Shown: in pieces, positions 4,254 to 57,512 of the stretch
Layout: every line of letters starts with the position of its first letter
Numbering within the stretch: position 1 is the stretch's first letter
Origin: an uncultured bacterium
GTDB taxonomy: Bacteria > Vulcanimicrobiota > JAJTBE01 > CAYNGH01
DNA length: 64,000 bases
NCBI GenBank assembly: GCA_964396845.1
Contig: CAYNGH010000003.1
Location: 2,992 to 66,991 of the forward strand
Direction: 5' to 3'
Program-made: the position numbers and the translations under genes
The notes under the pieces: generated by a model
The model's input: only the letters and a program-made list of their open reading frames with translations
Databases searched by the model: none
What the model was told of the DNA's origin: nothing

Positions 4254-5402
4254 GTGTTGACTGAAGTCCAGAATATCATGATTTTTGCCGGCGAGGCCTC
4301 GGGGGATCTACAGGGGGCTCTGCTGGCCAGGGAATTAAAAAAATTCAACCCCCATATCAGGTTTTCCGGGGTGGGAGGGATCCAAATGAAAAGCCAGGGG
4401 ATCGACCTGGTTTTTGATTCCACCACCTTCGGGGTCATCGGCCCCTGGGAGGGGATCCGCAATCTGCCCCGGCTGTTACGCCTCTACAGGCAATGCCGGC
4501 AGGTTTTTCTGGACACCAAGCCGGATCTGGCAATATTCATCGACACTCCCGCCTTCTGCATGCGACTGGCTAAACTGAGTCGGGAGGAGAACATAAAAGC
4601 AGTCTATTACTTTCCTCCCTCGGCCTGGTCGGGAAGCGTGAAGCGGGCAGAAGAAGTTGCGGGCCTGGTGGATTCCGTCATCACTGCCTTTCGTTTTACC
4701 GCGGACACTTATGACCGGGGAGGCATCCCTCATTTTTATACGGGGCATCCCCTGGTGGATGTTATGCAGAAATGGAAAAATGCCAACAGGGATAAAATCT
4801 TAAAAGACCTGGGCCTTGAAGACGGCCCTTCCTATGTGGCCCTGATGCCGGGAAGCCGCACTCAGGAGATAAATCATGTGCTCCCCTTGCTGGTTGAAAC
4901 TGCCGGCAGGCTCAAAGAAGAAATCCCCGGAGTTCATTTTTTAATTCCGGTGGCATCGCCACTTCTCCGGGAGAAGATCATGTCAGGAGTCGAAAACTGC
5001 AATGCTCCGGTGAGTCTATTTGATGGCCGTGCTCAGGAGATAATGGCAGTTTGCCGGCTGGTGATTATGGCCTCGGGGAGCGCATCCCTGGAGGCTTCAA
5101 TCCTGGAGGTTCCCATGATCCTCACATACCGGCTCAACCAGTTAGACTACAAGATCATCCGGGCCTTTGTAAAGCAGAAATGGGCAGGACTGCCGAATCT
5201 TATTCTTGAGCGGGAGATTGTACCTGAACTGCTTCAGGAAAAGGCCACAGTTGAAAATATATGCCAAATAGCAAAGGATCTGATCCCTGACGGACAGAAA
5301 AGACAGAAAATGATTCATGACCTCAAGGAGTTGAATAAAGCCCTGGGTGAACCGGGAGTCACAGGCCGTGTGGCAAGGCATATATGGGAGGATGTTTTAT
5401 GA
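4254..5402 (+). CDS. lpxB: lipid-A-disaccharide synthase
   Basis: 382 aa. IFAGEASGDLQGALLARELKK N-terminal motif typical of LpxB (GT19). GTG start 5 nt after AAGGAG. Confidence 0.8.
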   Translation: MLTEVQNIMIFAGEASGDLQGALLARELKKFNPHIRFSGVGGIQMKSQGIDLVFDSTTFGVIGPWEGIRNLPRLLRLYRQCRQVFLDTKPDLAIFIDTPAFCMRLAKLSREENIKAVYYFPPSAWSGSVKRAEEVAGLVDSVITAFRFTADTYDRGGIPHFYTGHPLVDVMQKWKNANRDKILKDLGLEDGPSYVALMPGSRTQEINHVLPLLVETAGRLKEEIPGVHFLIPVASPLLREKIMSGVENCNAPVSLFDGRAQEIMAVCRLVIMASGSASLEASILEVPMILTYRLNQLDYKIIRAFVKQKWAGLPNLILEREIVPELLQEKATVENICQIAKDLIPDGQKRQKMIHDLKELNKALGEPGVTGRVARHIWEDVL

Positions 5403-6649
5403 CTTCCACTCCCTCGGATATTGTCATCGTTTCCAACAGCCCCGGGGAGTTGTCATCCTGGGTAAGGGTCACCGCGAACCGGCTCAAGGAAAAAAGCCCT
5501 GATCAGCGTATCATTCTGGCGCTGGTTCCCTGTCCCTATGCATCGGGCAGGGAAATCAACGTGGCGGAGAGCTTTGATACTGTTGATATTGTTCTTTCCC
5601 CTGCTCAATTTCTCCAGTTTATATTTCTGGGCAGGCTCCCGGCAGAATATACCCCGGCGAAACAGGGAATTGTGGTTTTCCTGGGGGGTGACTATTGGCA
5701 CGCTGCAGGGCTGGCATGGAAACTCCGATACCCTGCGGTGGCTTATACAGCCCGGCCTTATGTGGGCATGCAGAAGCATTTCCGCCATATCTTCTGTCCT
5801 TATCAGTCAGTACGGGATCAGCTGGAAAAAAAGGGAGTTGACAAAGACAAACTGATGGTGGTAGGGAACCTGATGGTGGAAGGAGTCAAGCCCACCACCA
5901 GCCGGGAGGAAGGCTTCCGACGATGGGGGCTTGACCCGGAGATTCTCACCGTGGGGATATTCCCTGGAAGCCGTCTTTATCATATGCAGGATTCATTGCC
6001 GGTTTTTCTAAAAGTTGCCGAGGAGATCCACCGGGAAATCCCGAAAGTGCAGTTTATTCTGGGCCTTTCACCTTTTCTGTCCATCCAGGAACTCACTGAC
6101 TGCCTGAGGGATCCCCAGACCCCCATCCCCGGAAGTGGCGGGCAGGTATCCAACTCCGACAGAGGATGTCAGATAACCACCGCCTGCGGTGTAAAGGTTG
6201 AAGTGTTGGAATCGGATCAGTATGACACCATGAACATGTCCGATGTGGTCCTTACAATCCCCGGCACCAATACTGCAGAGGTGGCATATCTGGGACGGCC
6301 CATGGTGGTGGCGGCTTCATGGAAAGCTCGGATACCCAGGGGAGGCCTGGGATTCTTCCTCAATTCCATACCCATGGGAGGACTCCGCCGGGCCATGATC
6401 CTGAAACTGCTGGAGAAGCAACGGTTCACATCTCTTCCCAATATGATTGCCGGTGAAGCAGTGGTGCCGGAAGTGCTGGTGGAAAACAAAGCAGAAGAAA
6501 TAACAAAAGTTGCCCTGGATCTCATCCGGGACAAAGATCGCCAACAGGCCCTCTCAGAAAGGATGCGCCGGATAATGGGTGGTTCCGGGGCTGTTGACCG
6601 GATAACCGATGCCATCATCGAAATAATAAATTCCCAGGAGGCCCAATGA
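5399..6649 (+). CDS. LpxB-related (GT-B-like) glycosyltransferase, 'lipid-A-disaccharide synthase-related protein' type
   Basis: ORF-track ORF 5384..6649. The better start is ATG 5399 (GGGAGGA 6 nt upstream), which overlaps the lpxB stop as ATGA. N-terminus IVIVSNSPGELSSWVRV parallels the LpxB N-terminal sugar-binding loop. Family assignment is from memory only. Confidence 0.5.
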   Translation: MTSTPSDIVIVSNSPGELSSWVRVTANRLKEKSPDQRIILALVPCPYASGREINVAESFDTVDIVLSPAQFLQFIFLGRLPAEYTPAKQGIVVFLGGDYWHAAGLAWKLRYPAVAYTARPYVGMQKHFRHIFCPYQSVRDQLEKKGVDKDKLMVVGNLMVEGVKPTTSREEGFRRWGLDPEILTVGIFPGSRLYHMQDSLPVFLKVAEEIHREIPKVQFILGLSPFLSIQELTDCLRDPQTPIPGSGGQVSNSDRGCQITTACGVKVEVLESDQYDTMNMSDVVLTIPGTNTAEVAYLGRPMVVAASWKARIPRGGLGFFLNSIPMGGLRRAMILKLLEKQRFTSLPNMIAGEAVVPEVLVENKAEEITKVALDLIRDKDRQQALSERMRRIMGGSGAVDRITDAIIEIINSQEAQ

Positions 6650-12285: not shown

Positions 12286-12987
12286 TTACGAGGCGATTTC
12301 CAGTTCCACGGTTTTTCTTGCTCTATGTTCCAGTGTTCCGGAGATGTTGAGTTCTACGGTTTCTATGGCTTTGCGGTTGAGTTCTTCATCGAGGCAGGAG
12401 CCGGTTCTCATGGGTTGTGTGTAGTAGTTTTCCCCGGCCAGCATTTGGTTTTTGATGGATGCTATGTCCAGGGTATCATTGACGGGGGGATAGATTGTGG
12501 TGCGGAATTCATATTCCATCCCTGATTCCCGGCCAGCCTCCCGGATCAGGGCCATAGAGCGGATGCAGTTGCCTTCGATGCCGGGGGTGCCGGTAACTTT
12601 CTCATAGTTTCGCCAGCCGGCTTTCACATCCATTGCCACGTAATCCACAAGTCCTTGTTGCAGGAGGGTTTTGAGGGTCATGGGGTTTGAGCCGTTGGTG
12701 TCCAGTTTAATTTCCAGTCCCATCTCTTTTATCTTCCGGCAAAATTCCACCAGTCCCTGATGGATGGTAGGTTCGCCTCCGGTTATAACCACGCCGTCCA
12801 GGAAAAATTTTCGTCTTTCAATGTGATCCAGCACTTGTTGCGGGGTCAGGTTGTTCCCACCTTCCCGGATAAGTTCCGGGTTATGACAGTATGGACACCG
12901 GAAGTTGCATCCCTTTGTGAATATCATTACCGCTACTCTTCCGGGAAAGTCCAGCAGGGTCAGTTTTTGAATTCCGCCGATTATCAT
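12286..12987 (-). CDS. nrdG: anaerobic ribonucleoside-triphosphate reductase activating protein (radical SAM)
   Basis: LTLLDFPGRVAVMIFTKGCNFRCPYCHNPEL is the canonical NrdG N-terminus; 233 aa; immediately downstream of nrdD. Confidence 0.85.
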   Translation of the reverse strand: MIIGGIQKLTLLDFPGRVAVMIFTKGCNFRCPYCHNPELIREGGNNLTPQQVLDHIERRKFFLDGVVITGGEPTIHQGLVEFCRKIKEMGLEIKLDTNGSNPMTLKTLLQQGLVDYVAMDVKAGWRNYEKVTGTPGIEGNCIRSMALIREAGRESGMEYEFRTTIYPPVNDTLDIASIKNQMLAGENYYTQPMRTGSCLDEELNRKAIETVELNISGTLEHRARKTVELEIAS

Positions 12988-13033: not shown

Positions 13034-15100
13034 TTATGTTCCCACCGAGAAAACTTTTCTCTCCTGGTATTCTTTCTGCTTGCCTTTGTTCCATTGACGC
13101 ACAGGGCGGTGATACCCCATCACCCGTGACCAAACTTCGCATTCGTCGTTGCAATGGGGGCATTTGTGATATTCTCCCGGCAGGTAACCGTGGGCAGGAC
13201 AGATGCTGAAGGTGGGAGTGACGGTAAAATATGGCAGGCGGAAATTGTTGGACACCTTCTTTACAAGGCTCCGGCAGGATTTCCAGTTACTTATTCTTTC
13301 CCCCAGGAATATATGGAATACTGTCCCCCCGGTGTATAGAGTCTGCAATGCGTTCTGATGCTCCAGGGCGCTGATGGGATCGTCGGTGTAGCTTACGGGA
13401 AGCTGAGTTGAGTTGGTATAATATGGTGAATCTGCAGATCCTGCCTGACGGATGCCGGGGTAACGCTTCTTGTCTTCCCGGGCAAACCGGTATGTGGCCC
13501 CTTCTGCGGGGGTGGCCTCCAGATTGAACAGGTTTCCTGTTTCCTCCTGATAGTCAGCTATCCGATCCCGCATGAATACCAGCACTTCTTTGGCGAATTC
13601 CTCCCCGGCAGGTGAGGCAATATCAGAACCCAGCAGGTTCAGACAAGCTTCATTGCCACCGTTGAGGCCGATGGTGGAGAAATGATTCCGCAGGCTGTAA
13701 AGATAACGTTTGGTGAAGGGGAGGAGTCCCTTTTCATAGTTGTCGGTGATGACTTTCCGCTTGATTTCAAGGGAAGATTTTGCCAGATCCATCAGCCTGC
13801 CAAGACCGCGGAAGAATTCTTCCTTGTCGGTGGAAACATATCCCAGCCGGGCCAGGTTGATGGTGACCACTCCCACAGAACCAGTCATTTCCGAGGAGCC
13901 GAACAACCCTCCGCCCCGGGATCGAAGTTCCCGCAGATCCAATTGAAGGCGACAGCACATACTGCGGACATCGGAAGGGTTCAGGGGGGAATTGATAAAG
14001 TTCTGGAAATACGGGGTTCCGTACTTGGCGGTCATCTCGAAGAGCTTCCGGGCATTTTCGCTGTCCCAGTCAAAATCAGGAGTTATGTTGTATGTGGGGA
14101 TGGGGAAGGTGAAAATCCGTCCCTTGGAATCCCCCTCGGTCATAACCTCGATGAATGCCCTGTTGATGAGATCCATCTCCTCCTGAAGCTCGCCGTAGGT
14201 AAAATTCAGGGTCTGGCCACCGATAACCGGGGTCTTGTCCCGGAGATCCACCGGGCATACCCAGTCAAAAGTCACATTGGTGAAGGGCGTCTGAGTTCCC
14301 CATCGGGAAGGGACATTGAGATTAAAAACAAACTGCTGGATGCACTGCTTGACCCGGGGGTAATCCAGCTCCTCCAGCCGGACAAAGGGTGCCAGAAATG
14401 TATCCACCGATGAGAATGCCTGAGCCCCTGCCCATTCGTTCTGAAGAGTTCCCAGGAAGTTCACCATCTGAGCCACTGCAGTTTCCAGATGCTTAGGAGG
14501 CTTGGATTCCACTTTGCCGGGGACTCCGTTGAAGCCTTCCTGCAGGAGTTGCCTCAGGCTCCAGCCGGCGCAGTATCCTGAGAACATATCCAGGTCGTGA
14601 ATGTGCATATCGCCGTTGGTGTGGGCTTCCCGTATTTCCTCGGGATACACATAATTAAGCCAGTAATTGGCGATAATCTTCCCCGCGGTATTTAGAATCA
14701 TCCCCCCCAGGGAATAATCCTGATTGGCGTTAGCCTTGACCCGCCAGTCACTGCGAGAGAGGTATTCATCAATAGTCTTGCTGACCTCCACGGCAACACT
14801 GTTTGCCTGGCGGACACTGGCCCGCTTTTCCCGGTACACTATATAAGCCCGGGCAGTCTTGTAGTATTCAGCGGAGATAAGGGTCATCTCCACCAGATCC
14901 TGTATCTGCTCTACAGTAATTTCCTTGATAAACCTCCGGGAGTTTATGATGCACTGGCAGACCCTGTCGGTTATATCGCCGGAGGTTCGGCCGTTAAATT
15001 CTCTGGTAACTGATGCCGCCTTGGTTATGGCTTTTTCTATTCTCTCTTTTTCAAAAGGGATCCGGTCCCCGTTTCTTTTTACTACCATTGGTAAACTCAT
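13034..15100 (-). CDS. nrdD: anaerobic ribonucleoside-triphosphate reductase (class III)
   Basis: 688 aa. ATP-cone-like N-terminus (VVKRNGDRIPFEKERIEKAI), and a C-terminal Zn-ribbon CPHCNDEC...C plus glycyl-radical region (RVMGYHRPV) as in NrdD. Confidence 0.9.
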   Translation of the reverse strand: MSLPMVVKRNGDRIPFEKERIEKAITKAASVTREFNGRTSGDITDRVCQCIINSRRFIKEITVEQIQDLVEMTLISAEYYKTARAYIVYREKRASVRQANSVAVEVSKTIDEYLSRSDWRVKANANQDYSLGGMILNTAGKIIANYWLNYVYPEEIREAHTNGDMHIHDLDMFSGYCAGWSLRQLLQEGFNGVPGKVESKPPKHLETAVAQMVNFLGTLQNEWAGAQAFSSVDTFLAPFVRLEELDYPRVKQCIQQFVFNLNVPSRWGTQTPFTNVTFDWVCPVDLRDKTPVIGGQTLNFTYGELQEEMDLINRAFIEVMTEGDSKGRIFTFPIPTYNITPDFDWDSENARKLFEMTAKYGTPYFQNFINSPLNPSDVRSMCCRLQLDLRELRSRGGGLFGSSEMTGSVGVVTINLARLGYVSTDKEEFFRGLGRLMDLAKSSLEIKRKVITDNYEKGLLPFTKRYLYSLRNHFSTIGLNGGNEACLNLLGSDIASPAGEEFAKEVLVFMRDRIADYQEETGNLFNLEATPAEGATYRFAREDKKRYPGIRQAGSADSPYYTNSTQLPVSYTDDPISALEHQNALQTLYTGGTVFHIFLGERISNWKSCRSLVKKVSNNFRLPYFTVTPTFSICPAHGYLPGEYHKCPHCNDECEVWSRVMGYHRPVRQWNKGKQKEYQERKVFSVGT

Positions 15101-38389: not shown

Positions 38390-39937
38390 ATGAGTCTTGA
38401 ATCAAAACTCCTGGAGTTGAGCAAGCTTCGGGACAAGGCAAAGCTGGGAGGCGGCACTAAAAGAATCGACGCCCAGCATGCCAAGGGAAAGCTGACCGCC
38501 AGGGAGAGGATTGACCTTCTGCTGGATGCCGACAGCTTTGAAGAGTTTGACATGTTTGTCAAACACCGTTGCAGTGATTTCGGCCTGGGGGATAAAAAAA
38601 TCCCCTCCGACGGCGTAATCACAGGCTATGGAACCGTTGACAGCAGGCCGGTGTTTGTGTTTTCCCAGGACTTCACAGTGTTTGGAGGCTCCCTGTCCAA
38701 GACCTTTGCAGAAAAAATCTGCAAGGTGATGGATATGGCGGCAAAAATGGGAGCGCCCCTGATCGGCCTCAACGATTCGGGAGGTGCTCGAATCCAGGAA
38801 GGAGTTGACAGCCTGGCAGGCTATGCGGATATTTTCCTTCGAAATGTCCTCTACTCGGGAGTTGTCCCCCAGATCAGCGCCATTCTTGGCCCCTGCGCAG
38901 GAGGCGCCGTCTATTCACCGGCCATCACCGACTTTACCATTATGACCCGGGAAAACAGCTACATGTTTGTCACCGGCCCAAAGGTAGTCAAGACTGTCAC
39001 CGGCGAAGATGTTACCAACGAAGAGTTAGGCGGCCCCATGGTTCACTGCTCCCGCTCCGGTGTGTCCCATTTTCTGGCGGAAACCGAGGAAGAAGCTATC
39101 CTGCTCATCCGCAAGCTCCTTTCGTATATTCCTCAGAACAACCTTGAAGACCCCCCCACCATGACATGTGAAGACCCGGTGAACCGGGCCGATGACAATT
39201 TGAACCAGATTGTCCCCGACAACCCCAACAAACCCTATGACATGAAAGAAATCATCGAAGCGGTGGTTGATTCCAGAGAGTTTCTGGAGATTCACCGGCT
39301 GTGGGCTCCCAACATCATTGTGGGGTTTGGCCGGTTCAACGGCAAATCCGTGGGGATCGTGGCCAACCAGCCCAAGAACCTGGCCGGAGTTCTGGACAAC
39401 CAGTCATCCATCAAGGCTGCCCGGTTTGTCCGCTTCTGTGACGCCTTCAGTATCCCCGTGGTCACCTTTGTGGATGTCCCCGGGTTCATGCCGGGCACGG
39501 TCCAGGAGTATGGCGGAATCATCCGCAACGGGGCAAAGCTGTTATATGCCTATGCCGAGTGCACCATCCCCAAGATCACCGTCATCACCCGGAAGGCATA
39601 CGGAGGTGCCTATGATGTGATGTCCTCCAAGCATATCCGGGGCGATCTCAACTATGCCTGGCCTTCGGCAGAGATTGCAGTGATGGGGCCCAAGGGAGCA
39701 GTGGAGATAATCTTCCGCAACGAACTCAAGGGGGAGGATCGGGAAGAAAAGGCCTCACAATTGGAAGCAGAATATCGAAGCAAGTTTGCCAACCCCTATG
39801 TGGCTGCGGAGAGGGGCTTTGTGGATGATGTCATCGAACCCCGGCAGACCCGGTTTCGCATCATCAAGGGGCTGGAAATGCTGGCTGCCAAGAAGGACAG
39901 CAATCCCGCCAAAAAACACGGAAATATTCCCCTTTAG
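38390..39937 (+). CDS. mmdA: methylmalonyl-CoA decarboxylase alpha subunit / propionyl-CoA carboxylase beta-type carboxyltransferase
   Basis: 515 aa, full-length match in layout to the 12S carboxyltransferase family ([28 protein letters not shown]). Confidence 0.85.
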
Positions 39938-39943
39938 GGAGGC

Positions 39944-40378
39944 ATGATGGACACTCTCACAATGTTTATAAATACCGCAGGAGATCCGGCAGTCCAGACA
40001 AAAACCATCGGCGGATTGGATGCGATTTCTAAAAACCACGGCGACAAGCTGACCTTGCTGGGGATGGTGGTGGTTTTCTCAGGGCTGGTGATATTAACCC
40101 TGGTCCTGTATTCCCTCCCCGGTGTGATCAAATATATCCGCAACATCCATGAATCCATTTTTTCCCCGGAAAAAGCCCGGAAACAGACTCCCGACACAAA
40201 TGAACAACCTCATATCACCGGTGAAGAAGCCGCGGCCATCTGTACAGCAATACTGTTGTATCACCGGATGCACATGGCGGATCGACGACAGAAGCTTACA
40301 ATGCGTTCCGAGCTGAAAATGCTTTCACCCTGGGCCCTTGCGGGCAAAATTCAAAGAACCGGGCGCACCCTGAAATAA
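39944..40378 (+). CDS. OadG-like small membrane subunit of Na+-translocating decarboxylase
   Basis: 144 aa, single TM helix (LLGMVVVFSGLVILTLVLYSL), positioned between carboxyltransferase and biotin-carrier genes as in mmdADCB/oadGAB operons. Confidence 0.55.
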   Translation: MMDTLTMFINTAGDPAVQTKTIGGLDAISKNHGDKLTLLGMVVVFSGLVILTLVLYSLPGVIKYIRNIHESIFSPEKARKQTPDTNEQPHITGEEAAAICTAILLYHRMHMADRRQKLTMRSELKMLSPWALAGKIQRTGRTLK

Positions 40379-40400
40379 CGGGCCCCGCCAGGAGGATAAA

Positions 40401-40832
40401 ATGTATGAATACCAGTTTGTAATAAACGGAAACCAATATAATGTCAAGATTAATGATATTACCGAAACCCAGGCCAAGATTGATGTCAACGGCACTTTTT
40501 ACAATGTTGACATAGCACAGCTCTTTGAAGCCAAAACTCCGAAGCTGGTCCGCAAGGAAGTGGTGGAATCTTCCATCGTCCGCCAGCCCCTCACCGACAA
40601 ACCCGGCAAGGACCTGTCCCTGGGGATTGTCCGGGCGCCACTGCCGGGGGTTATCATCAAAATAATGGTCAAACCCGGCGACAAGGTAAAATCGGGACAG
40701 ACCATATTAAAAATGGAAGCCATGAAGATGGAAAACGACATATCATCGCCCCTGGACGGCGAAGTGAAGGATATATTCGTCAAGGAAGGGGAAAGCGTTC
40801 TGGAGGGCGCAGAACTGGCCAAGATAGAATAG
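40401..40832 (+). CDS. biotin carboxyl carrier subunit (biotinyl domain)
   Basis: C-terminal EAMKMEN biotinylation motif. Confidence 0.8.
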   Translation: MYEYQFVINGNQYNVKINDITETQAKIDVNGTFYNVDIAQLFEAKTPKLVRKEVVESSIVRQPLTDKPGKDLSLGIVRAPLPGVIIKIMVKPGDKVKSGQTILKMEAMKMENDISSPLDGEVKDIFVKEGESVLEGAELAKIE

Positions 40833-40844
40833 GAGATACTGCAA

Positions 40845-41981
40845 GTGGAAATCATCACAAATTTTTTAAGATCCACAGGTTTTTACCTTGCCACATACAG
40901 GCATATCATTATGATCATAATCGGGCTGATTTTCATATATCTTGCCATTGCCAAGGATTATGAACCTCTCCTGCTGGTTCCCATCGGTTTTGGAATCCTC
41001 ATCGGGAACATCCCTTTCATGGCCGGGCAGAAATTAGGAATCTATGAAGCAGGAAGCGTCATGAACTATCTCTACTTCGGGGTCCTTCAGGGAATATATC
41101 CGCCCCTGATATTTCTGGGCATCGGGGCCATGACTGATTTTTCATCCCTGATATCCAACCCGAAATTACTGCTTCTGGGAGCAGCGGCCCAGGTGGGGAT
41201 ATTCATGACTCTGGCAGGTGCTCTGTTTCTGGGCTTCTCTCCGGCAGAGGCAGCATCCATCGGCATCATCGGAGGAGCCGACGGCCCTACTGCCATATTC
41301 CTGTCTTCAAAACTTGCGGAACACCTCATCGGGCCTATTGCCATCGCAGCTTATTCATATATGGCCCTGGTCCCGGTAATACAGCCCCCCATCATGAAGC
41401 TCCTCACTTCACCCGAGGAAAGACGGATCAAGATGAAACCCCCCAGGGCCGTATCCAAGACTGAGAAGATTGTTTTCCCCATTATTGCATTCCTGGTATG
41501 CGCCTTTATTGCCCCTGCATCCATTGTCCTTCTGGGGATGCTCTTCTTCGGCAACCTCCTGAAGGAATCAGGGGTAACCGAAAGACTGGCCAACACAGCC
41601 CGGAACGCCCTGGTGGATATTGTCACCATCCTCATCGGCGTTACTGTCGGGGCCAGCACCCAGGCGGATGTGTTTTTGACCATCGATTCCATCAAGATAT
41701 TCGCCCTGGGAGCTTTGTCTTTTATCATAGCAACTGCAGGGGGGCTTATCTTTGCAAAAATCTTGAACCTCTTCCTAAAGGAAAAAATAAACCCCCTCAT
41801 CGGGGCAGCAGGGGTTTCCGCAGTGCCGGACTCTGCCCGGGTGGTGCATACCGTGGGCCTCAGGGAAGACCCCACCAACTTCCTCCTGATGCATGCCATG
41901 GGCCCCAACGTGGCTGGGGTTATCGGGTCGGCCATCGCTGCGGGAATACTCTGGTCAACCATGTCGATGCTTCTAAGATAG
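40845..41981 (+). CDS. Na+-transporting decarboxylase beta subunit (OadB/MmdB/GcdB family)
   Basis: 378 aa, ~9-10 TM helices, family-typical GIIGGADGPT segment. GTG start. Confidence 0.85.
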   Translation: MEIITNFLRSTGFYLATYRHIIMIIIGLIFIYLAIAKDYEPLLLVPIGFGILIGNIPFMAGQKLGIYEAGSVMNYLYFGVLQGIYPPLIFLGIGAMTDFSSLISNPKLLLLGAAAQVGIFMTLAGALFLGFSPAEAASIGIIGGADGPTAIFLSSKLAEHLIGPIAIAAYSYMALVPVIQPPIMKLLTSPEERRIKMKPPRAVSKTEKIVFPIIAFLVCAFIAPASIVLLGMLFFGNLLKESGVTERLANTARNALVDIVTILIGVTVGASTQADVFLTIDSIKIFALGALSFIIATAGGLIFAKILNLFLKEKINPLIGAAGVSAVPDSARVVHTVGLREDPTNFLLMHAMGPNVAGVIGSAIAAGILWSTMSMLLR

Positions 41982-47548: not shown

Positions 47549-49453
47549 TCACTTGGCGCTGTCGCCAATGGGAATCCACATGATATATTTTACCCAGTCA
47601 GGGGCCAACTCCATTATTCTTTCACCGCCAAACATGAAAACAAATATGTCCCGCAAAAGATACCTGGCATCCTGGGGGTTCTTAGCCTTGTCGATATAAT
47701 CAAACAACCTGTACTGAACAACAAGATACTCGCCCCTTCTTTCCTTCACCAGCCCCAGAGGAGTTGCCACCAGATTGGTTTCCGGATCAGACATGACCAC
47801 GATGGGCTCTATGCTCATTTCCTTTTCCCGAACCTTCACCAGCAGAGATCGGATACCGAAGTCCGACAGCCTCCCCTCAAACTGCTGTGGGGTGAACTCC
47901 CGGAATATGTGGTGCCATTGCCGGGGAAGCCTGAAGTTCATCATATGCCGGGCGGGTTCGTATTCCTTGTAAACCGGGGTAAAGGGCATGGACATATTGC
48001 TCTGGGAGTCATGTTCAAAAAATATCACCCGGCCTCCTTCGGCTACATAGGATCGAATCAAATAATTAAAATTGCGGATTGTTTCCGCAGCCCCCGGAGC
48101 AACCACCAGCAACCTGGGCAGAGATCTCCTCCCCTGCTGAAGATTTTCAATCTCCCTGGTCAGTATTTCCTGGCTGAAAGGGATAAAGTCAATCCCTAAT
48201 TCAGATAAAACCCCGGAAATTTTTTTCCCGGCCCGTCTTCCCTCTGCTAAAATTACTGTGGTATTAAAACTGGGCCGTAGTTTCTGGAAAAGAACTATTC
48301 GAATGCCGAAGTAGCCCATCAGAAGATAAACCAGAGTCAGGATTACAGCAAGACGTGCCCTGGCGGGATCCGCCACATCAGGAACAAGATCCTGGGGGGT
48401 TTTCCCCGGAACATAGGAATCACCCTTGAAACCGGTAATCTCATCGATGGGGATATTATATCGGATATTAAACAAATCCCCCTGTATCACTGGTTTGCGG
48501 TCAATCTCAATGTGAAAGCTCTTAAATATCCATCCCCCGTCTTCAAAATGCTCAAAATTGTCATATTCCGCCCGGGCATAAAGTTTGCCCATGGGATCCA
48601 GCAGGTCTATCCGCCGGATGTAACGATTGTCGTCGTTGGACACATAAAGCTTGAAATGCCCATAATCATTGCTTTTAACATCCACGATGACTATCTGATG
48701 ATCCCCCATCATGAACCGTCCCAGAAATTCTGTCTTCCACTGGGGATCCCTGACCTTGATGTAAAAGGGAAAGACAAGATGCATGGGGTTGTCCCGGTTG
48801 AAAACAACATTGTTGTCACTGTCCACTGATTCCGCTCTGGTGTATGCGGTAATAACTCGACGGCTCTCCATCTCTTCTTCGGGGATGGGAATCTTTTTAA
48901 TGGGAATGGTCTGGCGAACCCCTAAAGATGGCCTGGGTCTTTGCCGGGGAGTCGGCTGTTCGTCTTTCTTAAGAGAAGGAACCAGCTCCACAAAATCGTT
49001 CTTTAACCTGAGCAGGTAACCATCCTGGCTGAAGAAATTAAAAAAATAGCCTCCTTCCGGGCTGGCAAAAAGCAGGATGTTAAAAACCCTGGGATGCCGG
49101 TGAAAATTGATTATCCCCACAGGCCGGGTAAACCGGATATCTTCATGGGGGGGCAGTATCCCCCTCATCAGGAAAGGATGCTTCCGCACCGTCAACAGGT
49201 CTGCTTCCATGCTCTGGATATTGTCATTGGCCTGGAAAATCTCCTGAATGATTGTATCGGGATCCTTCTCATAATCCTCATCATCAGCCAGTGCCGGAGA
49301 AACGGAAAAAAGAAAGAAGGCCAGCAGGCATATAAACACCAGAAAGCAGAAAGTCTGGAAACCCCGGGGCTTCAGTGTTGTTGATTGTCCTCTCCACAAA
49401 GGCAAAATAAAGAACACCTTTCTTCTTGCAGCTACATAAAAGCAACCCGGCAA
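47549..49453 (-). CDS. single-pass (bitopic) membrane protein, paralogue 2 of tandem pair (periplasmic N-domain / TM / cytoplasmic domain)
   Basis: 634 aa; shares with the upstream gene the blocks VILAEGRRAGKKISGVLSELGIDFIPF, GGRVIFFEH, MPFTPVY, GEYLVVQYRL. Confidence 0.55.
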   Translation of the reverse strand: MPGCFYVAARRKVFFILPLWRGQSTTLKPRGFQTFCFLVFICLLAFFLFSVSPALADDEDYEKDPDTIIQEIFQANDNIQSMEADLLTVRKHPFLMRGILPPHEDIRFTRPVGIINFHRHPRVFNILLFASPEGGYFFNFFSQDGYLLRLKNDFVELVPSLKKDEQPTPRQRPRPSLGVRQTIPIKKIPIPEEEMESRRVITAYTRAESVDSDNNVVFNRDNPMHLVFPFYIKVRDPQWKTEFLGRFMMGDHQIVIVDVKSNDYGHFKLYVSNDDNRYIRRIDLLDPMGKLYARAEYDNFEHFEDGGWIFKSFHIEIDRKPVIQGDLFNIRYNIPIDEITGFKGDSYVPGKTPQDLVPDVADPARARLAVILTLVYLLMGYFGIRIVLFQKLRPSFNTTVILAEGRRAGKKISGVLSELGIDFIPFSQEILTREIENLQQGRRSLPRLLVVAPGAAETIRNFNYLIRSYVAEGGRVIFFEHDSQSNMSMPFTPVYKEYEPARHMMNFRLPRQWHHIFREFTPQQFEGRLSDFGIRSLLVKVREKEMSIEPIVVMSDPETNLVATPLGLVKERRGEYLVVQYRLFDYIDKAKNPQDARYLLRDIFVFMFGGERIMELAPDWVKYIMWIPIGDSAK

Positions 49454-49465
49454 TTAATGCCCGGG

Positions 49466-51349
49466 TCACTTCTCCTGCTCTTCTTCATCTTCCCCGGCAT
49501 CATTTTGTTTTACAGGCTGTTTTACTCCCATCATATCCATAAGCCAGGTGGGAGCGAACAACAGATTCTTTTCTTTGCCGAATATATATTCCAGCAGATC
49601 TCTTAGCATCTTTTCCGCAGTGGCCGAGGTGAACTTCAGCTTTACAATTGCCTCCAACAGACGATACTGGATGATCATATACTCACCCTTGCCCTCCCGG
49701 ACCATGCAGATAGAAGCCGCCGTCAGATTGGTTCTCTCGTTTACCACCACCAGGATGGGATCGATTTCCAGGTTCTCTTCATGGATCTTGGCAATAAGTT
49801 CATAGGGAAGGAAAGCAGTGGTCCTCTTCTGGATCTCCTCTGCGGATGTGAGCTTCCATATCTTTTCCCAGTTGGGCATAATCACATAAGTATTGTCGGG
49901 ATCTGACCGGTCAAGGGGAACAAAGGTGGGAGTGAAAGGCATATCCTGAGCCTGCTCAACCCCATGGTCAAAGAATACCACCCGGCCACCGTCCCGGACA
50001 TAGGTCTTGAGCAGGAAGTTATATCCCTTGGACTGAGAAGACATACCCGGCGCTACAAATACAACCCTGGGTCTTTTCTTCTTTTTGAAGTCCAGCAGTT
50101 CCCTCTCCTGGGTCAGTTTCTGGGGAGTGAAGGGAGTGAAATGAATTCCCAGCTTTTCAAACACCGGGGAAATCTTCTCTTCGGCTCGGTTCCCCTCCAC
50201 AAGGATAACCTCCCGGCTGAAGGCGGGACGTTCTGCCTTGTAGAACCAGTAACGGTAACCGATGATGACCAGAACCACCAGAAGGAACAGAACCAGGAAA
50301 ATCAGCCCCACTGTCAGGAAGGGGCCTCCCCGCCATATCTGATCATTCTTGTCAACCTTGGGAGCTTCAGTAGTCTGAGGTCTTTCCCTGGGTTCATCCT
50401 GGTTGCTCAACAGGGTTTTATCATTCAGAGTCGCCCGCAACACAGGAAGCCCGTGCATGTATATATCACATACAGTATAAAGTCGGCCCCCCTTGATGAA
50501 AGAATAAAAATTCCTGTAGGTGGCTCTGGCATAGACCAGGTCATCCCGATCCAGCCTTTCCACCTGGATTACATCCCGGTTCTCATCGGCGGTTATAAAA
50601 ATCCGGGACTTGCCGTAAGTGGGGCTGTCAATCTCAACCACATAGCATTCCATGTTCATCAGGGTCCGCTTCCCCATATAACGCATTTCCTGGGTCGCCT
50701 CAAAAGGCTTGAAGGCATAAGGAAAAAGCAGGTTCAGGGGGTTTTCTCTGTTGGAAACCAGGCTTCCGTCAGGATTATGATCAAAGAGAGTCAGGTTGTA
50801 TATGTTTTCATATTCAACCCCTTCACTGTCTTTTGGAATATGCACCCCTATCTCTTCAAAGCCCGGATTAAGGCGGAACTGGTAGCCATCAGTGCTGGTA
50901 AAAGTATAGAAATATCTCCCCCGGCCCCGGTCATACATTTGAAGCTGATATCTCTTGGGTGCCCGGACATAATGGATGTATGACTTGGCGTTAAGATAAC
51001 CTACTTCATCGAAGTGAGGCAGGACATTTCTCATGAAATCCGGGTTCAACCTGTCGATGGTAAGCTCCGACTCATAGCTGACAAAGCGGGCCTTCACATC
51101 CCATATCTCCTTGATCAGCTTGCCGGCATCAATCTCTTCTTCTTCGTCGGAATCCTCGGCTTCTTCAGTAACAACCGGTGTGGCATCCGCTTCAGGTTCA
51201 TCACCGGGGGGGCCGGATCCACACGATATGGCACAGGTCAACAGAAAAACCAACAGCAACAAAACCACCGGCACAAGTAATACCAGGCGGCATCTTCTCT
51301 CCCTGTCGGGGCTGCTGCTTCCCCTGTTGCAAAATATAGTCTGTATCAT
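49466..51349 (-). CDS. single-pass (bitopic) membrane protein, paralogue 1 of tandem pair
   Basis: 627 aa; signal/lipoprotein-like N-terminus, acidic linker, ~250-aa periplasmic domain, TM (FLTVGLIFLVLFLLVVLVIIGY), cytoplasmic domain with VILVEGNRAEEKISPVFEKLGIHFTPF, GGRVVFFDHG, MPFTPTF, GEYMIIQYRL. Confidence 0.55.
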   Translation of the reverse strand: MIQTIFCNRGSSSPDRERRCRLVLLVPVVLLLLVFLLTCAISCGSGPPGDEPEADATPVVTEEAEDSDEEEEIDAGKLIKEIWDVKARFVSYESELTIDRLNPDFMRNVLPHFDEVGYLNAKSYIHYVRAPKRYQLQMYDRGRGRYFYTFTSTDGYQFRLNPGFEEIGVHIPKDSEGVEYENIYNLTLFDHNPDGSLVSNRENPLNLLFPYAFKPFEATQEMRYMGKRTLMNMECYVVEIDSPTYGKSRIFITADENRDVIQVERLDRDDLVYARATYRNFYSFIKGGRLYTVCDIYMHGLPVLRATLNDKTLLSNQDEPRERPQTTEAPKVDKNDQIWRGGPFLTVGLIFLVLFLLVVLVIIGYRYWFYKAERPAFSREVILVEGNRAEEKISPVFEKLGIHFTPFTPQKLTQERELLDFKKKKRPRVVFVAPGMSSQSKGYNFLLKTYVRDGGRVVFFDHGVEQAQDMPFTPTFVPLDRSDPDNTYVIMPNWEKIWKLTSAEEIQKRTTAFLPYELIAKIHEENLEIDPILVVVNERTNLTAASICMVREGKGEYMIIQYRLLEAIVKLKFTSATAEKMLRDLLEYIFGKEKNLLFAPTWLMDMMGVKQPVKQNDAGEDEEEQEK

Positions 51350-51490
51350 AAATTATGGCTTGATAATTTATATTTTTATTTACATCCGTTGCCTGTTTCA
51401 CCTCAACATTTCGAAAAAACTCCCCCATGTCCTCTTTGTGCCCGGAAGAATGACCACAAGACGCCAGTTTTTCTTATGCTCCCATACATT

Positions 51491-51776
51491 GGTGTTCGGT
51501 TAAGCAATATAAGCTTGTAGCTGTGCCGTCTGGATGGGGTTTCTCCCGCTGTCTTTCTCCTGCTTCAGGGAGGTTTGCTCCATGTCGCCTCACAGATTCC
51601 TTTCCCTCCGGGATACGCCGTCCCTGGCGCGCCCGGAGCATCGGACATCGTGTCCGATGAAGGAATCCTGTGGACTCCCTGTCGCACTCCCTGGGCAGGA
51701 GAATAATGCGTTTCAAAACCCCAACCCTGACTGTCTGGACATTGATGGAGCAATGATTGCAATCTTAACCGAACAC
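51491..51776 (+). mobile_element. MITE-like non-autonomous element (~286 bp) with perfect 13-bp terminal inverted repeats GTGTTCGGTTAAG / CTTAACCGAACAC
   Basis: Left end ggTGTTCGGTTAAGc at 51491-51505, right end CTTAACCGAACAC at 51764-51776. Internal hairpins include ATCGGACA-tcg-TGTCCGAT and CACAGATTCCTT/AAGGAATCCTGTG. A ~90%-identical inverted copy lies at 57130-57358. Confidence 0.55.
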
Positions 51777-55089: not shown

Positions 55090-55773
55090 TCACATATCCA
55101 TCATCTTTCTGATGGTTGAAGGAACCTCGTCCCGGAGGGACTGATCCCCTGACAGAGCATCGCTGATATGTTTCCTGCCCATATCTTCCTTGCCTGACTC
55201 CACCAGGGATATCCCCAGAAACAGCCTGGCCCGGTTGTCGCCGGGGTCAAGCCTGAGAGCCTCTTCAAAGCATTTTTTTGCTTCCTCGAAACGATATAGC
55301 TTCACCAGGGCATAGCCTTTGTATTTATATGCCCGGATATAATCCGAATCTTTTTTGATGGCGGTGTCAAAACTCTTGATGGAATCATCATGCTGACCGG
55401 CCCGCCCCTGAGCATAACCCAGATTGAACCATATGTCCGGGGAATCAGGCAACGCTGCCAGGGCCTTGCGATAAGTCCCCAGGGCATAATTGAACTTGCC
55501 TGTATCAAGATATACATTGGATATCATAACCCAGGCATCGATGTTGGTCTTGTCGATTTCCACCGCCTTCTGAAGCAGGGGCATCCCGCTGTTGATGTCC
55601 CCTTTTTCCAGCAAGGCCGCTCCCCTCTGGACAAGATCCCTGGAACGGGTTGCAGGATCCGTGGTTTCCGGCTGGGCCTGACAGAAGCCATGAGTTGCAG
55701 TTAATGCCAGAAAGACCGTCAATATGGCAATTACCCTGATTGATGTGTTACAGATTATACTAAAATCTTTCAA
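55090..55773 (-). CDS. TPR-repeat secreted/lipoprotein
   Basis: Signal peptide VIAILTVFLALTATHGFC, then 4-5 TPR units. Confidence 0.65.
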   Translation of the reverse strand: MKDFSIICNTSIRVIAILTVFLALTATHGFCQAQPETTDPATRSRDLVQRGAALLEKGDINSGMPLLQKAVEIDKTNIDAWVMISNVYLDTGKFNYALGTYRKALAALPDSPDIWFNLGYAQGRAGQHDDSIKSFDTAIKKDSDYIRAYKYKGYALVKLYRFEEAKKCFEEALRLDPGDNRARLFLGISLVESGKEDMGRKHISDALSGDQSLRDEVPSTIRKMMDM

Positions 55774-55791: not shown

Positions 55792-56997
55792 TTATATTCT
55801 GGTAGATTCCGACCGAGCGCCGATAACTCTGCCGGGACATCCTTCCATCACACAGCCCGGCGCAACATTGCGATCCACCGATGTGCCCGGCGCAACAATC
55901 ACATTATCGCCAATCTCGATATTAGGGGATACAGCTCCGCCAATACCGATGAGAACCCCACGGCCAATTCTTACCATCCCTCCCAGGTGAGATCCCGGCG
56001 CCATGTGGGAAAACTCCCCCAGCCGGCAATCATGGCTGATGGAACAGTTCTGGGTGATAAAAGTCCCCCGGCTTATGGTACTGCGGATTGACACCAACGA
56101 ATGAGCCTCCACCACACAACCATCTTCAATAAGGGCATTTTTGGATATACAAGCCCTGGGATGAATAGCGGATATGGGCTTCAGCCCTGCATCGACAGCC
56201 CTTTGAAAAAGCTGTGCCCTCAGATGAGGCTCCCCCACCGATACAATAAAATTATTCACTCCCCGGCGGGCAATTTCTGCCAGCATATTAGTCCTGCCCA
56301 ACACCGGCAGACCGTCAATCTTTTTTCCGTCAAGGGCAGGATTATCATCCAGGTAACCTTCAATCTCCAGCTTTTCAATTTTTTCCAGAATCTCCCGGAT
56401 AACCCCGGAATACTGTCCGGCGCCGATTATGACGCACTTGCGGGGCCTGCTGGAAAAGAGAATATAGGTTTCCACATCTTCATGGGTGATGGTGTCCCCC
56501 CGGGAAGGCTTGATGTCCGCCAGGTTTATTCCCGCCTGACGCGCTCTCCGCCGTGCCCTGGGTGATGCCTTGATCCCGGGAGCTTCTGAAGAGTGCATAG
56601 GGGCATGCATCATCCGTTGAATCTCCATGGTGGCGGGGCCTGGCTCTCCCTGATCATCGGCGGCAACCGGCTCCTCCAGTTCTTTTGATTCAACTTCAGG
56701 GATTTTCTGTGCATCCTTTCGCCGGGCTATCTCGTCCAACAGCCCCCGGATATTTTCATCTTTCCCCCCGATAATCCCCACCGCCTCTGCAATGGGAACC
56801 CTGGCACCCTCTCCGGCAATGATTTTCTTGAGTATTCCCCGGTTTTCTGCTTCCACCTCGACGGAAGCCTTATCGGTTACCATCTCGAAAAGGGGATCCC
56901 CGATATCCACCGGCTGACCTTCACCCACAAACCAGTGGACAATCCTGCCCTGGGTCATGTTGGCACCAAGTTTTGGAAGGAAAATTTCATATGCCAT
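55792..56997 (-). CDS. fusion protein: lipoyl domain + E3-binding (PSBD) domain + NeuD/PglD-type left-handed beta-helix sugar N/O-acetyltransferase
   Basis: From MAYEIFLPKLGANMTQGRIVHWFVGEGQPVDIGDPLFEMVTDKASVEVE (lipoyl-lysine TDKA context). Then ASPRARRRARQAGINLADIKPSRGDTITHEDV (peripheral subunit-binding domain). Then KCVIIGAGQYSGVIREIL...LDDN (NeuD N-terminal Rossmann-like part). Then repeated hexapeptides (IGRGVLIGIGGAVSPNIEIGDNVIVAPGTSV). RBS GGAGA 7 nt upstream. Confidence 0.7.
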   Translation of the reverse strand: MAYEIFLPKLGANMTQGRIVHWFVGEGQPVDIGDPLFEMVTDKASVEVEAENRGILKKIIAGEGARVPIAEAVGIIGGKDENIRGLLDEIARRKDAQKIPEVESKELEEPVAADDQGEPGPATMEIQRMMHAPMHSSEAPGIKASPRARRRARQAGINLADIKPSRGDTITHEDVETYILFSSRPRKCVIIGAGQYSGVIREILEKIEKLEIEGYLDDNPALDGKKIDGLPVLGRTNMLAEIARRGVNNFIVSVGEPHLRAQLFQRAVDAGLKPISAIHPRACISKNALIEDGCVVEAHSLVSIRSTISRGTFITQNCSISHDCRLGEFSHMAPGSHLGGMVRIGRGVLIGIGGAVSPNIEIGDNVIVAPGTSVDRNVAPGCVMEGCPGRVIGARSESTRI

Positions 56998-57129: not shown

Positions 57130-57358
57130 CAGTCAGGGCTGGGGTTTCGAAAGGCATTATTCTCCTGCCCAGGGGGTGGGACAGGAAGTTCACAGGATTC
57201 CTTCATCGGACACGATGTCCGATACTCCGGGAGCGCCAGGTACGGCGTATTCCGGAGGGAAAGGAATCTGTGAGGCGACATGGAGCAAACCGCCCCAAAG
57301 CAGGAAAGACACCATCCAGACGGCACAGCTACTGAGTTATATTACTTAACCGAACACC
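57130..57358 (-). mobile_element. partial inverted copy of the MITE-like element (outer TIR intact, inner end truncated)
   Basis: Reverse complement of 57130-57358 aligns at ~90% identity to 51491-51733 with one ~14-nt indel; retains CTTAACCGAACACC at 57345-57358; lacks the second TIR. Confidence 0.55.
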
Positions 57359-57512
57359 AGTTTAATAAGCTTAAAGTGGATGTCTATGGGTTTTCCAGTG
57401 CATCGTATCAACAGAATAACATTTCATCACATTTATAAGGGGATCCGTTTTTTAATGGTGCTTATGACACCTACAAAAGAGTATAGAGGCCAGACATATC
57501 TGTCAGAAACAT

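Follow-up and report, generated by a model that had tools for sequence, protein, structure and literature searches.

The gene analyzed here lies on the minus strand of a 64-kb stretch of DNA from an uncultured Vulcanimicrobiota bacterium (hereafter the window, meaning that whole stretch), and it encodes a protein in which two modules of the E2 component of 2-oxoacid dehydrogenases, a lipoyl domain and a peripheral-subunit-binding domain (PSBD), are joined to a complete sugar N-acetyltransferase fold of the NeuD/PglD type. We show that such fusions form a real and uncharacterized variant of E2-type swinging-arm enzymes, that one lysine of the lipoyl domain and one histidine of the transferase domain are invariant across them, and that, at four of five loci sampled beyond the clade of the window protein, the fusion gene is tightly linked to genes for E1-alpha and E1-beta, in three cases inside amino-sugar clusters. 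We favor, with a probability of roughly 0.5, the reading that the protein is a lipoylated swinging-arm acyltransferase, in which a beta-helix N-acyltransferase of the NeuD/PglD/PerB type has taken the place of the trimeric, CAT-like core that E2 carries. The window protein carries every feature by which we define the family, namely lipoyl, PSBD-like, PglD_N and left-handed beta-helix (LBH) domains in a single chain of ~340-400 aa, together with the invariant Lys and His.

An earlier, sequence-only reading of the window had placed the gene at 55792-56997, and these coordinates proved exact; the gene runs on the minus strand from an ATG at 56997-56995 to a stop codon at 55794-55792 (401 aa). A longer open reading frame (ORF), initiated by TTG and extending to 57090, was rejected as the start, because homologs share a start at MAYE and a GGAG ribosome-binding site (RBS) precedes the ATG at 56997. 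An identical protein is present in public collections (P0001). The same reading had claimed a lipoyl domain, a PSBD and a NeuD/PglD-type C-terminal half in place of the CAT-like core of E2, and profile searches bear out each of these assignments. Pfam Biotin_lipoyl matches aa 5-69 at 50.0 bits (gathering cut-off 22.1), with K43 in the motif TDKA, and E3_binding matches aa 142-176 at 34.8 bits (cut-off 23.7). In the C-terminal half, PglD_N matches aa 188-266 at 51.8 bits (cut-off 23.4), Hexapep scores 44.6 bits (cut-off 27), and the NCBIfam model TIGR03570 (NeuD/PglB/VioB) is covered from position 2 to 202 of 202 by aa 188-390 (176.7 bits, cut-off 160.8). The CAT-like core (PF00198, 2-oxoacid_dh) gives no Pfam match at E<=1 in the 401-aa protein, and the E2 equivalog models of NCBIfam match only the N-terminal ~180 aa, at scores far under their cut-offs.

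Structural modeling agrees with this domain map. An AlphaFold2 model built from an alignment of 77 homologs reaches a pLDDT of 88.9 and a pTM of 0.71, with disorder (pLDDT <50) confined to aa 102-138; an earlier run with 15 sequences had reached a pLDDT of 65.7, with a poor beta-helix. The C-terminal half of the model superposes on PerB with a target-normalized TM-score of 0.94 and a root-mean-square deviation of 1.2 A, and its beta-helix domain consists of two-residue beta-strands every six residues (pLDDT 95-98). A sequence search of the PDB likewise leads from the C-terminal half to PglB-ATD, PerB, PglD and VioB, and from the N-terminal half to E2 of pyruvate dehydrogenase (PDH). His322 aligns with the PerB histidine that is mutated in the H141N and H141A structures (4eaa, 4eab).

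The conservation pattern connects the two halves. Within the 15-member subfamily to which the window protein belongs, K43, S145, P146, A148, A152, G192-A193-G194, D217, H322 and H331 are invariant, and the nucleotide-type residues Asp217 and Asp218 are kept. Across 77 diverse fusions with a mean column identity of 29%, K43 and H322 are the sole invariant columns, and the lipoyl and transferase modules are therefore under joint selection. The hairpin lysine is kept in 15 of 15 close homologs and in 77 of 77 and 88 of 88 diverse fusions; an apparent loss in distant members, seen with a simple regular expression, was rejected once the sequences were properly aligned. Nearly all of the 88 aligned fusions show a PSBD-like segment, even where the corresponding sub-model missed it, and the linker is variable in length and gappy in the alignment. 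The N-terminal lipoyl and PSBD half is 33-37% identical over ~180 aa to the N-terminal halves of genuine E2s, and is equally close to those of other fusions. Both the motif TDKA and the PSBD next to it point to lipoylation and not biotinylation, because the biotin carrier of the same genome (40401-40832 of the window) has the biotinyl motif EAMKME. That carrier belongs to a Na+-translocating decarboxylase operon at 38390-41981, which comprises a carboxyltransferase (38390-39937), a 144-aa membrane subunit, the carrier itself and OAD_beta (40845-41981).

The most informative evidence on function comes from gene context outside the window's clade. Among the five loci sampled there, E1 genes directly precede the fusion in four, and three of these four (P0149, P0091 and P0078) lie inside nucleotide-amino-sugar clusters. 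In P0149, from the metagenome-assembled genome (MAG) of a gammaproteobacterium, three epimerase/dehydratase-family genes, DegT, CTP_transf_3 and a PseG equivalog (289 bits) are followed by E1-alpha, E1-beta, the fusion and NeuB. Judged by its gene content, this is a pseudaminic-acid cluster in which the fusion takes the place of PseH, whose usual role has been described (PMC4363471); no GNAT gene of the PseH type is listed in its flank, where two genes have no Pfam match. P0091 has the order CTP_transf_3, E1-alpha, E1-beta, fusion and NeuB, followed by radical-SAM genes and DegT. P0078, from an archaeal MAG, has E1-alpha, E1-beta, the fusion, DegT, GFO_IDH_MocA and UDPG_MGDP_dh, followed by glycosyltransferases, and by the same kind of evidence is a WbpA/B/E-like set in which the fusion takes the position of WbpD. 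P0210 has a fused E1-alpha-beta gene followed by the fusion, and the fifth locus, P0060, is without E1. The E1 and fusion reading frames overlap by 4-11 nt in P0078, P0091 and P0210 and abut in P0149. The linked E1 subunits score 251 bits against a PDH-equivalog cut-off of 394, and 222 bits against 321, far under these cut-offs, and are therefore divergent, dedicated E1s. B12-binding radical-SAM genes also adjoin E1/fusion/NeuB modules (L017, 5871-7301 and 10685-12187; L016, 9597-11045), which hints at further tailoring of the sugar or of the acyl group, for example by C-methylation. P0060 stands beside a bacterial-microcompartment locus (L014/L015, 12281-19663, with PTAC, BMC shell proteins, aldehyde dehydrogenase, RnfC-like and DeoC genes) and a molybdopterin oxidoreductase, not beside E1 or sugar genes.

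Taken together, these observations suggest the following mechanism. A thiamine diphosphate (ThDP)-dependent E1 of the alpha/beta type would decarboxylate a 2-oxo acid and reductively acylate the predicted lipoyl group on Lys43, and the PSBD would dock that E1 and/or the E3 that later re-oxidizes the dihydrolipoyl arm. The disordered tether of ~45 residues would admit the acyl-dihydrolipoyl arm to the beta-helix site, at the position usually held by the pantetheine of acetyl-CoA, where His322 would deprotonate the accepting amine, which most likely belongs to an amino sugar linked to a nucleotide, and the acyl group would pass from the arm to this acceptor. The protein may be expected to form trimers, as do the solved members of the NeuD/PglD/PerB-type family. 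The sequence-only reading had proposed such a transfer from a lipoyl arm, possibly loaded by an E1, to a non-CoA acceptor such as an amino sugar: at the level of the family, the E1 and amino-sugar context of the relatives (four of five loci linked to E1) gives this strong circumstantial support, and the window's own subfamily gives none (zero of nine). In that subfamily, E1 and E3 would have to act in trans from genes at other places in the genome. Housekeeping enzymes may fill this role, in keeping with the canonical, E2-like character of the lipoyl and PSBD modules.

Differences in the transferase domain emerge when 87 fusions are set against 33 standalone NeuD/PglD-like proteins that the same search had retrieved. 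The catalytic histidine at 322, conserved in the standalone proteins, is His in 100% of the fusions and throughout the subfamily. In the Gly-rich loop (192-197), the standalone proteins have GAGGH, with His at 196 in 67%, whereas the fusions have GAGxG and keep the His in 8 of 87, and the subfamily has GAG[EQ]YS. At position 315, the equivalent of PglD Asn118, the Asn found in 82% of the standalone proteins is replaced in the fusions by Asp (56%) or Thr (23%), and by Thr in the subfamily. The Gly-Ala pair at 369-370 (Gly in 100%, Ala in 82% of the standalone proteins) becomes [S/T/A]-[P/V] in the fusions and [T/A]-P in the subfamily. The window protein has Y196, T315 and A369-P370 at these sites, and where standalone proteins show the pattern N-T-G...HD, the subfamily carries TQNCS[VI]SHD. 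In PglD, the sugar substrate is presumably contacted by His15 and Asn118, and the CoA groove is presumably lined by the last turns of the helix (Gly174-Ala175). The changes are consistent with a remodeled donor and/or acceptor site.

The same comparison bears on two alternatives to the swinging-arm acylation of a sugar. The first is that the fusion is an analogous E2, with the beta-helix domain moving the acyl group from dihydrolipoyl-Lys43 to CoA, and the acyl-CoA being used separately or in a second step. This would suit the canonical lipoyl and PSBD modules, which are no further from genuine E2s than from other fusions, the His-as-base chemistry common to both folds, the retention of the C-terminal residues that cover CoA and the absence of sugar genes at loci of the subfamily; the classical CAT and the hexapeptide XAT types of chloramphenicol acetyltransferase also show that the two folds can do the same thioester chemistry. 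We nevertheless consider it unlikely. In the E1-linked clusters, the fusion fills the N-acetyltransferase slot and no other N-acyltransferase family occurs in the listed flanks, an absence limited by some genes there having no Pfam match. The NeuD-type N-terminal domain, known from the structures of PerB with GDP-perosamine and of VioB with a TDP-amino sugar to be the part that binds the nucleotide-sugar, is fully kept with its Asp217 and would be purposeless in a simple E2, and the Gly-Ala pair that is invariant in CoA users is lost.

The second alternative is that the protein is an ordinary acetyl-CoA-dependent sugar N-acetyltransferase, in which the lipoyl and PSBD modules act only as a tether or sensor, either docking the enzyme onto a 2-oxoacid dehydrogenase complex for local acetyl-CoA or sensing the redox or acylation state of lipoyl groups. 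The end-to-end match to TIGR03570 above its cut-off, the near identity of the fold to that of PerB, the naming of these proteins as NeuD-family acetyltransferases in databases and the lack of a dedicated E1 in the window's subfamily are all in line with it. A tether needs no modified lysine, yet K43 is present in every one of the aligned fusions; with acetyl-CoA as the donor, it makes little sense for the fusion to be overlapped or abutted by genes for its own, divergent E1-alpha/beta; and the residues typical of CoA-dependent relatives at the periphery of the site are systematically changed. We therefore regard this explanation as quite improbable.

The window's own subfamily is more difficult to interpret. 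Its 15 sequences fall into nine independent loci (the window, L001, L002, L004, L005, L007, L008, L010 and L019), and E1 linkage differs between the loci outside the clade (4/5) and those of the subfamily (0/9; Fisher p about 0.005 if the loci are treated as independent, which phylogenetically they are not). In a neighbor-joining (NJ) tree of the NeuD halves, a rough tree without support values, the main fusion clade contains the subfamily, which sits together with P0058 and P0060 in a nested position between E1-linked lineages; P0060 together with P0058 forms its closest outgroup. The orphan state is probably derived, because the subfamily nests between E1-linked lineages.

Several observations weigh against the mechanism that we favor. 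E1, E3, lipoylation and sugar-pathway genes are absent within ~10 kb at all nine subfamily loci, and no such gene was found among the scanned ORFs of >=170 aa in the 64-kb window, in agreement with the statement of the sequence-only reading that the window holds no E1 or E3. No E3 gene lies in any of the flanks, even at the E1-linked loci P0149, P0078, P0091 and P0210, so that re-oxidation of the arm is unexplained, and the sampled contexts outside the clade number only five. G386 and P388, in the region that covers CoA in standalone enzymes, are conserved in both groups, and CoA binding may thus be retained. Finally, the window organism has an anaerobic ribonucleotide reductase and may lack aerobic-type 2-oxoacid dehydrogenases altogether.

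The last point reflects other genes of the window, which encodes NrdD (13034-15100), a radical-SAM protein that is likely its activase (12286-12987) and two LpxB-like proteins (4254-6649). The organism is probably an anaerobic diderm, in which a lipoyl- and E1-dependent enzyme is more surprising.

The immediate neighbors of the fusion allow a third alternative for the orphan subfamily, which shares its mechanism with the favored model but has a different acceptor. The TPR gene begins 18 nt past the fusion stop, and full-length orthologs with 41-58% identity, each of which begins with a hydrophobic segment resembling a signal peptide, directly follow the fusion in L004, L005 and L019, that is, in four lineages together with the window. 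The TPR protein is thus a conserved partner in one branch of the subfamily, and the sole conserved one. In the other branch, a gene for a T2SSE-type ATPase of ~590 aa overlaps the fusion stop and is followed by an ACT-domain gene (L008 and L010); this stretch lies at 2227-4562 in L008 and at 11206-13535 in L010, and in L001 a T2SSE gene is found 8 kb off. These neighbors, the subfamily's own motifs GAG[EQ]YS and TQNCS[VI]SHD and the lack of sugar genes nearby could mean that the orphan enzymes acylate an amine of some other kind, or else a component of the envelope or a protein tied to the TPR partner or to the T2SSE-type ATPase. We think this very unlikely, as the neighbors differ between the two branches, a functional precedent is lacking, the TPR N-terminus suggests export while the fusion has no signal peptide, and the nucleotide-type Asp217 and Asp218 are kept. 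For the favored swinging-arm mechanism, we consider it possible, at somewhat less than an even chance, that the family performs CoA-independent sugar N-acylation and that the orphan subfamily has lost its private E1 and uses housekeeping E1 and E3 through the PSBD. If so, N-acyl decorations could be made without any acyl-CoA pool, and the orphan copy would tie a modification of the envelope or surface, or of a non-sugar acceptor, to central 2-oxoacid flux in uncultured anaerobes.

The wider neighborhood of the gene (Table 1) matches what had been read from the letters, in that the TPR, ankyrin and S8 membrane protease genes described there are all present by Pfam, the protease with a DUF5942 membrane domain. 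The ankyrin gene is probably the third gene of a fusion-TPR transcription unit; the same gene order is found in the syntenic locus L004, and its conservation as shown extends to L004 only. The S8 protease recurs at four of eight loci and was rejected as a functional partner, its association probably being coincidental because the distant copies share only 28-33% identity. The gene had also been described as lying downstream of a truncated copy of a miniature inverted-repeat transposable element (MITE). A ~250-nt repeat does lie 133 nt upstream of the fusion start, and its inverted pair brackets a 5.4-kb S8-ankyrin-TPR-fusion block; the pair could be a MITE-like element or the ends of a mobilized or invertible segment. 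The repeat has two copies only within the window and no Rfam match, and a scan for promoters and terminators gave nothing above chance. Beyond this block lie two adjacent minus-strand paralogs of ~630 aa (47549-49453 and 49466-51349) with no Pfam match, the second with an N-terminal signal- or transmembrane-like segment and an internal transmembrane segment; fragmented homologs occur in L004.

Table 1. Positions in the window of the fusion gene, its predicted domains and key codons, and adjacent features.
Feature	Position	Strand	Basis
Fusion gene (complete, stop included)	55792..56997	-	ORF and translation, 401 aa; GGAG RBS
Lipoyl domain, aa 1-80	56758..56997	-	Biotin_lipoyl, 50 bits; pLDDT about 86-97
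Codon of Lys43 (TDKA), predicted lipoyl-lysine at beta-hairpin tip	56869..56871	-	Invariant across fusions
Linker, aa 81-140	56578..56757	-	Helix aa 84-97, then disordered Pro/Ala/Glu-rich tether
PSBD (E3_binding), aa 141-183	56449..56577	-	34.8 bits; S145, P146, A148, A152 invariant in subfamily
PglD_N Rossmann-like N-terminal acyltransferase domain, aa 186-268	56194..56442	-	51.8 bits; fold match to PerB, PglB-ATD, PglD, VioB
Left-handed beta-helix (hexapeptide) domain, aa 269-395	55813..56193	-	Hexapep; TIGR03570 full-length
Codon of His322 (SHDC), predicted catalytic base	56032..56034	-	Aligns with PerB His141
TPR protein, 227 aa, signal-peptide-like N-terminus	55090..55773	-	TPR Pfam matches; own GGAGG RBS
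Ankyrin-repeat protein, 333 aa	54057..55058	-	Ank Pfam matches; 31-nt gap after TPR gene
~250-nt repeat, upstream copy	57130..57364		Inverted partner 51485-51733; arms 83-91% complementary

The rarity implied by the sequence-only reading did not survive a larger search. A word-indexed search of 5.8 billion clusters returned 15 full-length relatives at 47-100% identity, and the near-unique architecture that this suggested was overturned by an exhaustive search of 1.84 billion representatives with a hidden Markov model (HMM) of the family, whose best 150 matches were typed with sub-HMMs for each module. Among these best 150 are ~74 fusion clusters (at 50% identity) of 340-395 aa, so that the architecture is common: 32 clusters have the order lipoyl (LIP), PSBD, N-terminal domain (NTD) and LBH, 35 have LIP-NTD-LBH and 7 have LIP-(PSBD)-LBH. 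With ~74 of 150 representatives fused and most in one clade (~78 of 87 fusions in the NJ tree), the fusion is therefore old and maintained. Fusions occur in bacteria and also among archaea, in one MAG or more; the clusters that were sampled come from metagenomes and have one to four members each. A scan of genome contigs gave 2 GTDB species only, a Vulcanimicrobiota MAG and a MAG labeled Bacillota, and a scan of metagenome contigs yielded one fragment; tblastn found no full-length fusion in 72,556 plasmid records. Source names include "biotin/lipoyl-containing protein [archaeon]", "biotin/lipoyl attachment protein [Gammaproteobacteria]", "UDP-perosamine 4-acetyltransferase" and NeuD-family acetyltransferases. 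Nothing indicates that the architecture is already characterized: NCBIfam has no model specific to a lipoyl-PSBD-NeuD fusion, and in the literature searched, from which subscription journals largely fall outside, neither the fusion nor a sugar acylation that depends on E1 and a lipoyl group is described. One retrieved paper (PMC4875605) was set aside as irrelevant, its "lipoyl" being a loose term for fatty-acyl groups. The best 150 matches also include 11 tandem NeuD-NeuD duplications in one chain (among them P0073, P0081, P0085, P0086, P0105 and P0109). P0059 (865 aa) has four beta-helix modules, and P0034 (318 aa; source label COG0663) and P0217 (518 aa) are apparently independent fusions of lipoyl/biotinyl and hexapeptide-repeat domains without PglD_N.

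How does this family compare with known systems? The closest on the N-terminal side is E2p of PDH (TIGR01349; PDB 8piu, 6ct0, 3duf), which the fusion resembles over aa 5-179 in the lipoyl DKA lysine, the Pro/Ala/Glu-rich linker and the PSBD, all in the same order, and its relatives are encoded directly after E1-alpha/beta, as in PDH operons. The fusion is nonetheless no E2 in the defining sense, because it has no PF00198 core; its catalytic fold is another one and it presumably forms no 24- or 60-mer. An E2 gene would stand with a cognate E1 and usually an E3: the window subfamily stands with neither, E1 is adjacent in four distant relatives, and E3 is adjacent at no locus. Relatives lie in glycan clusters, not in central metabolism. 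On the C-terminal side, the complete two-domain fold is that of the NeuD/PglD/PerB/PglB-ATD/VioB family (TIGR03570; PDB 4ea7, 4m98, 3bsy, 7txp), from which the fusion keeps the catalytic His (PglD His125, PerB His141) and, in the N-terminal domain, the Asp and the loop rich in Gly. It differs by its N-terminal lipoyl-PSBD extension of ~185 aa, by lacking the equivalents of the loop His (PglD His15), the Asn (PglD Asn118) and the Gly-Ala pair, and by its presumed acyl donor, which would be the lipoyl arm and not acetyl-CoA. In Pse- and Wbp-like clusters, relatives of the window gene take the position of the N-acetyltransferase, and a glycan-cluster location of this kind is found in P0149, P0091 and P0078 and not in the window or the nine subfamily loci.

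A lipoyl domain on a catalytic domain other than CAT has a precedent in the AcoC-type E2 of acetoin dehydrogenase (NF011457), of which positions 3-82 are matched by the N-terminus of the fusion. The catalytic fold of AcoC is an alpha/beta hydrolase, as opposed to the beta-helix of the fusion, and AcoC still delivers acetyl to CoA. Similar in logic are the C2-unit transfer systems QncN/QncL/QncM of quinocarcin and SclQ1-4 of scleric acid biosynthesis, in which a lipoyl domain is charged by an E1-like, ThDP-dependent enzyme and its acyl group passes to an acyl carrier protein (ACP), with a domain for lipoyl attachment plus an "acyltransferase catalytic domain" (PMC6335953). These systems share with the proposed mechanism the diversion of a lipoyl-bound acyl group into biosynthesis at a non-CoA acceptor, and differ in serving secondary metabolism, with an ACP as acceptor where the fusion would have an amino sugar. 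We take their acyltransferase catalytic domain to be of the E2 type. CAT, with its E2-like fold, and XAT, with its hexapeptide fold, are both trimeric, have inter-subunit sites and a His base and are interchangeable in acyl-thioester chemistry; this is an analogy only, as their donor is acetyl-CoA and a lipoyl arm is absent from them.

To our knowledge, in the textbook cases, lipoyl arms always give their acyl group to CoA and sugar N-acetyltransferases take theirs from acetyl-CoA. If the swinging-arm mechanism holds, the fusion family, whose members elsewhere stand behind E1 genes of their own in clusters of the pseudaminic-acid-like and diacetamido-sugar kinds, would directly join these two systems, could explain atypical N-acyl substituents that bacteria and archaea carry on nonulosonic acids and O-antigens, and would be a second case, beside CAT and XAT, in which a beta-helix fold has replaced the CAT/E2 fold. 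Present labels, such as "NeuD family acetyltransferase" and "biotin/lipoyl-containing protein", make pathway reconstruction miss the E1 dependence.

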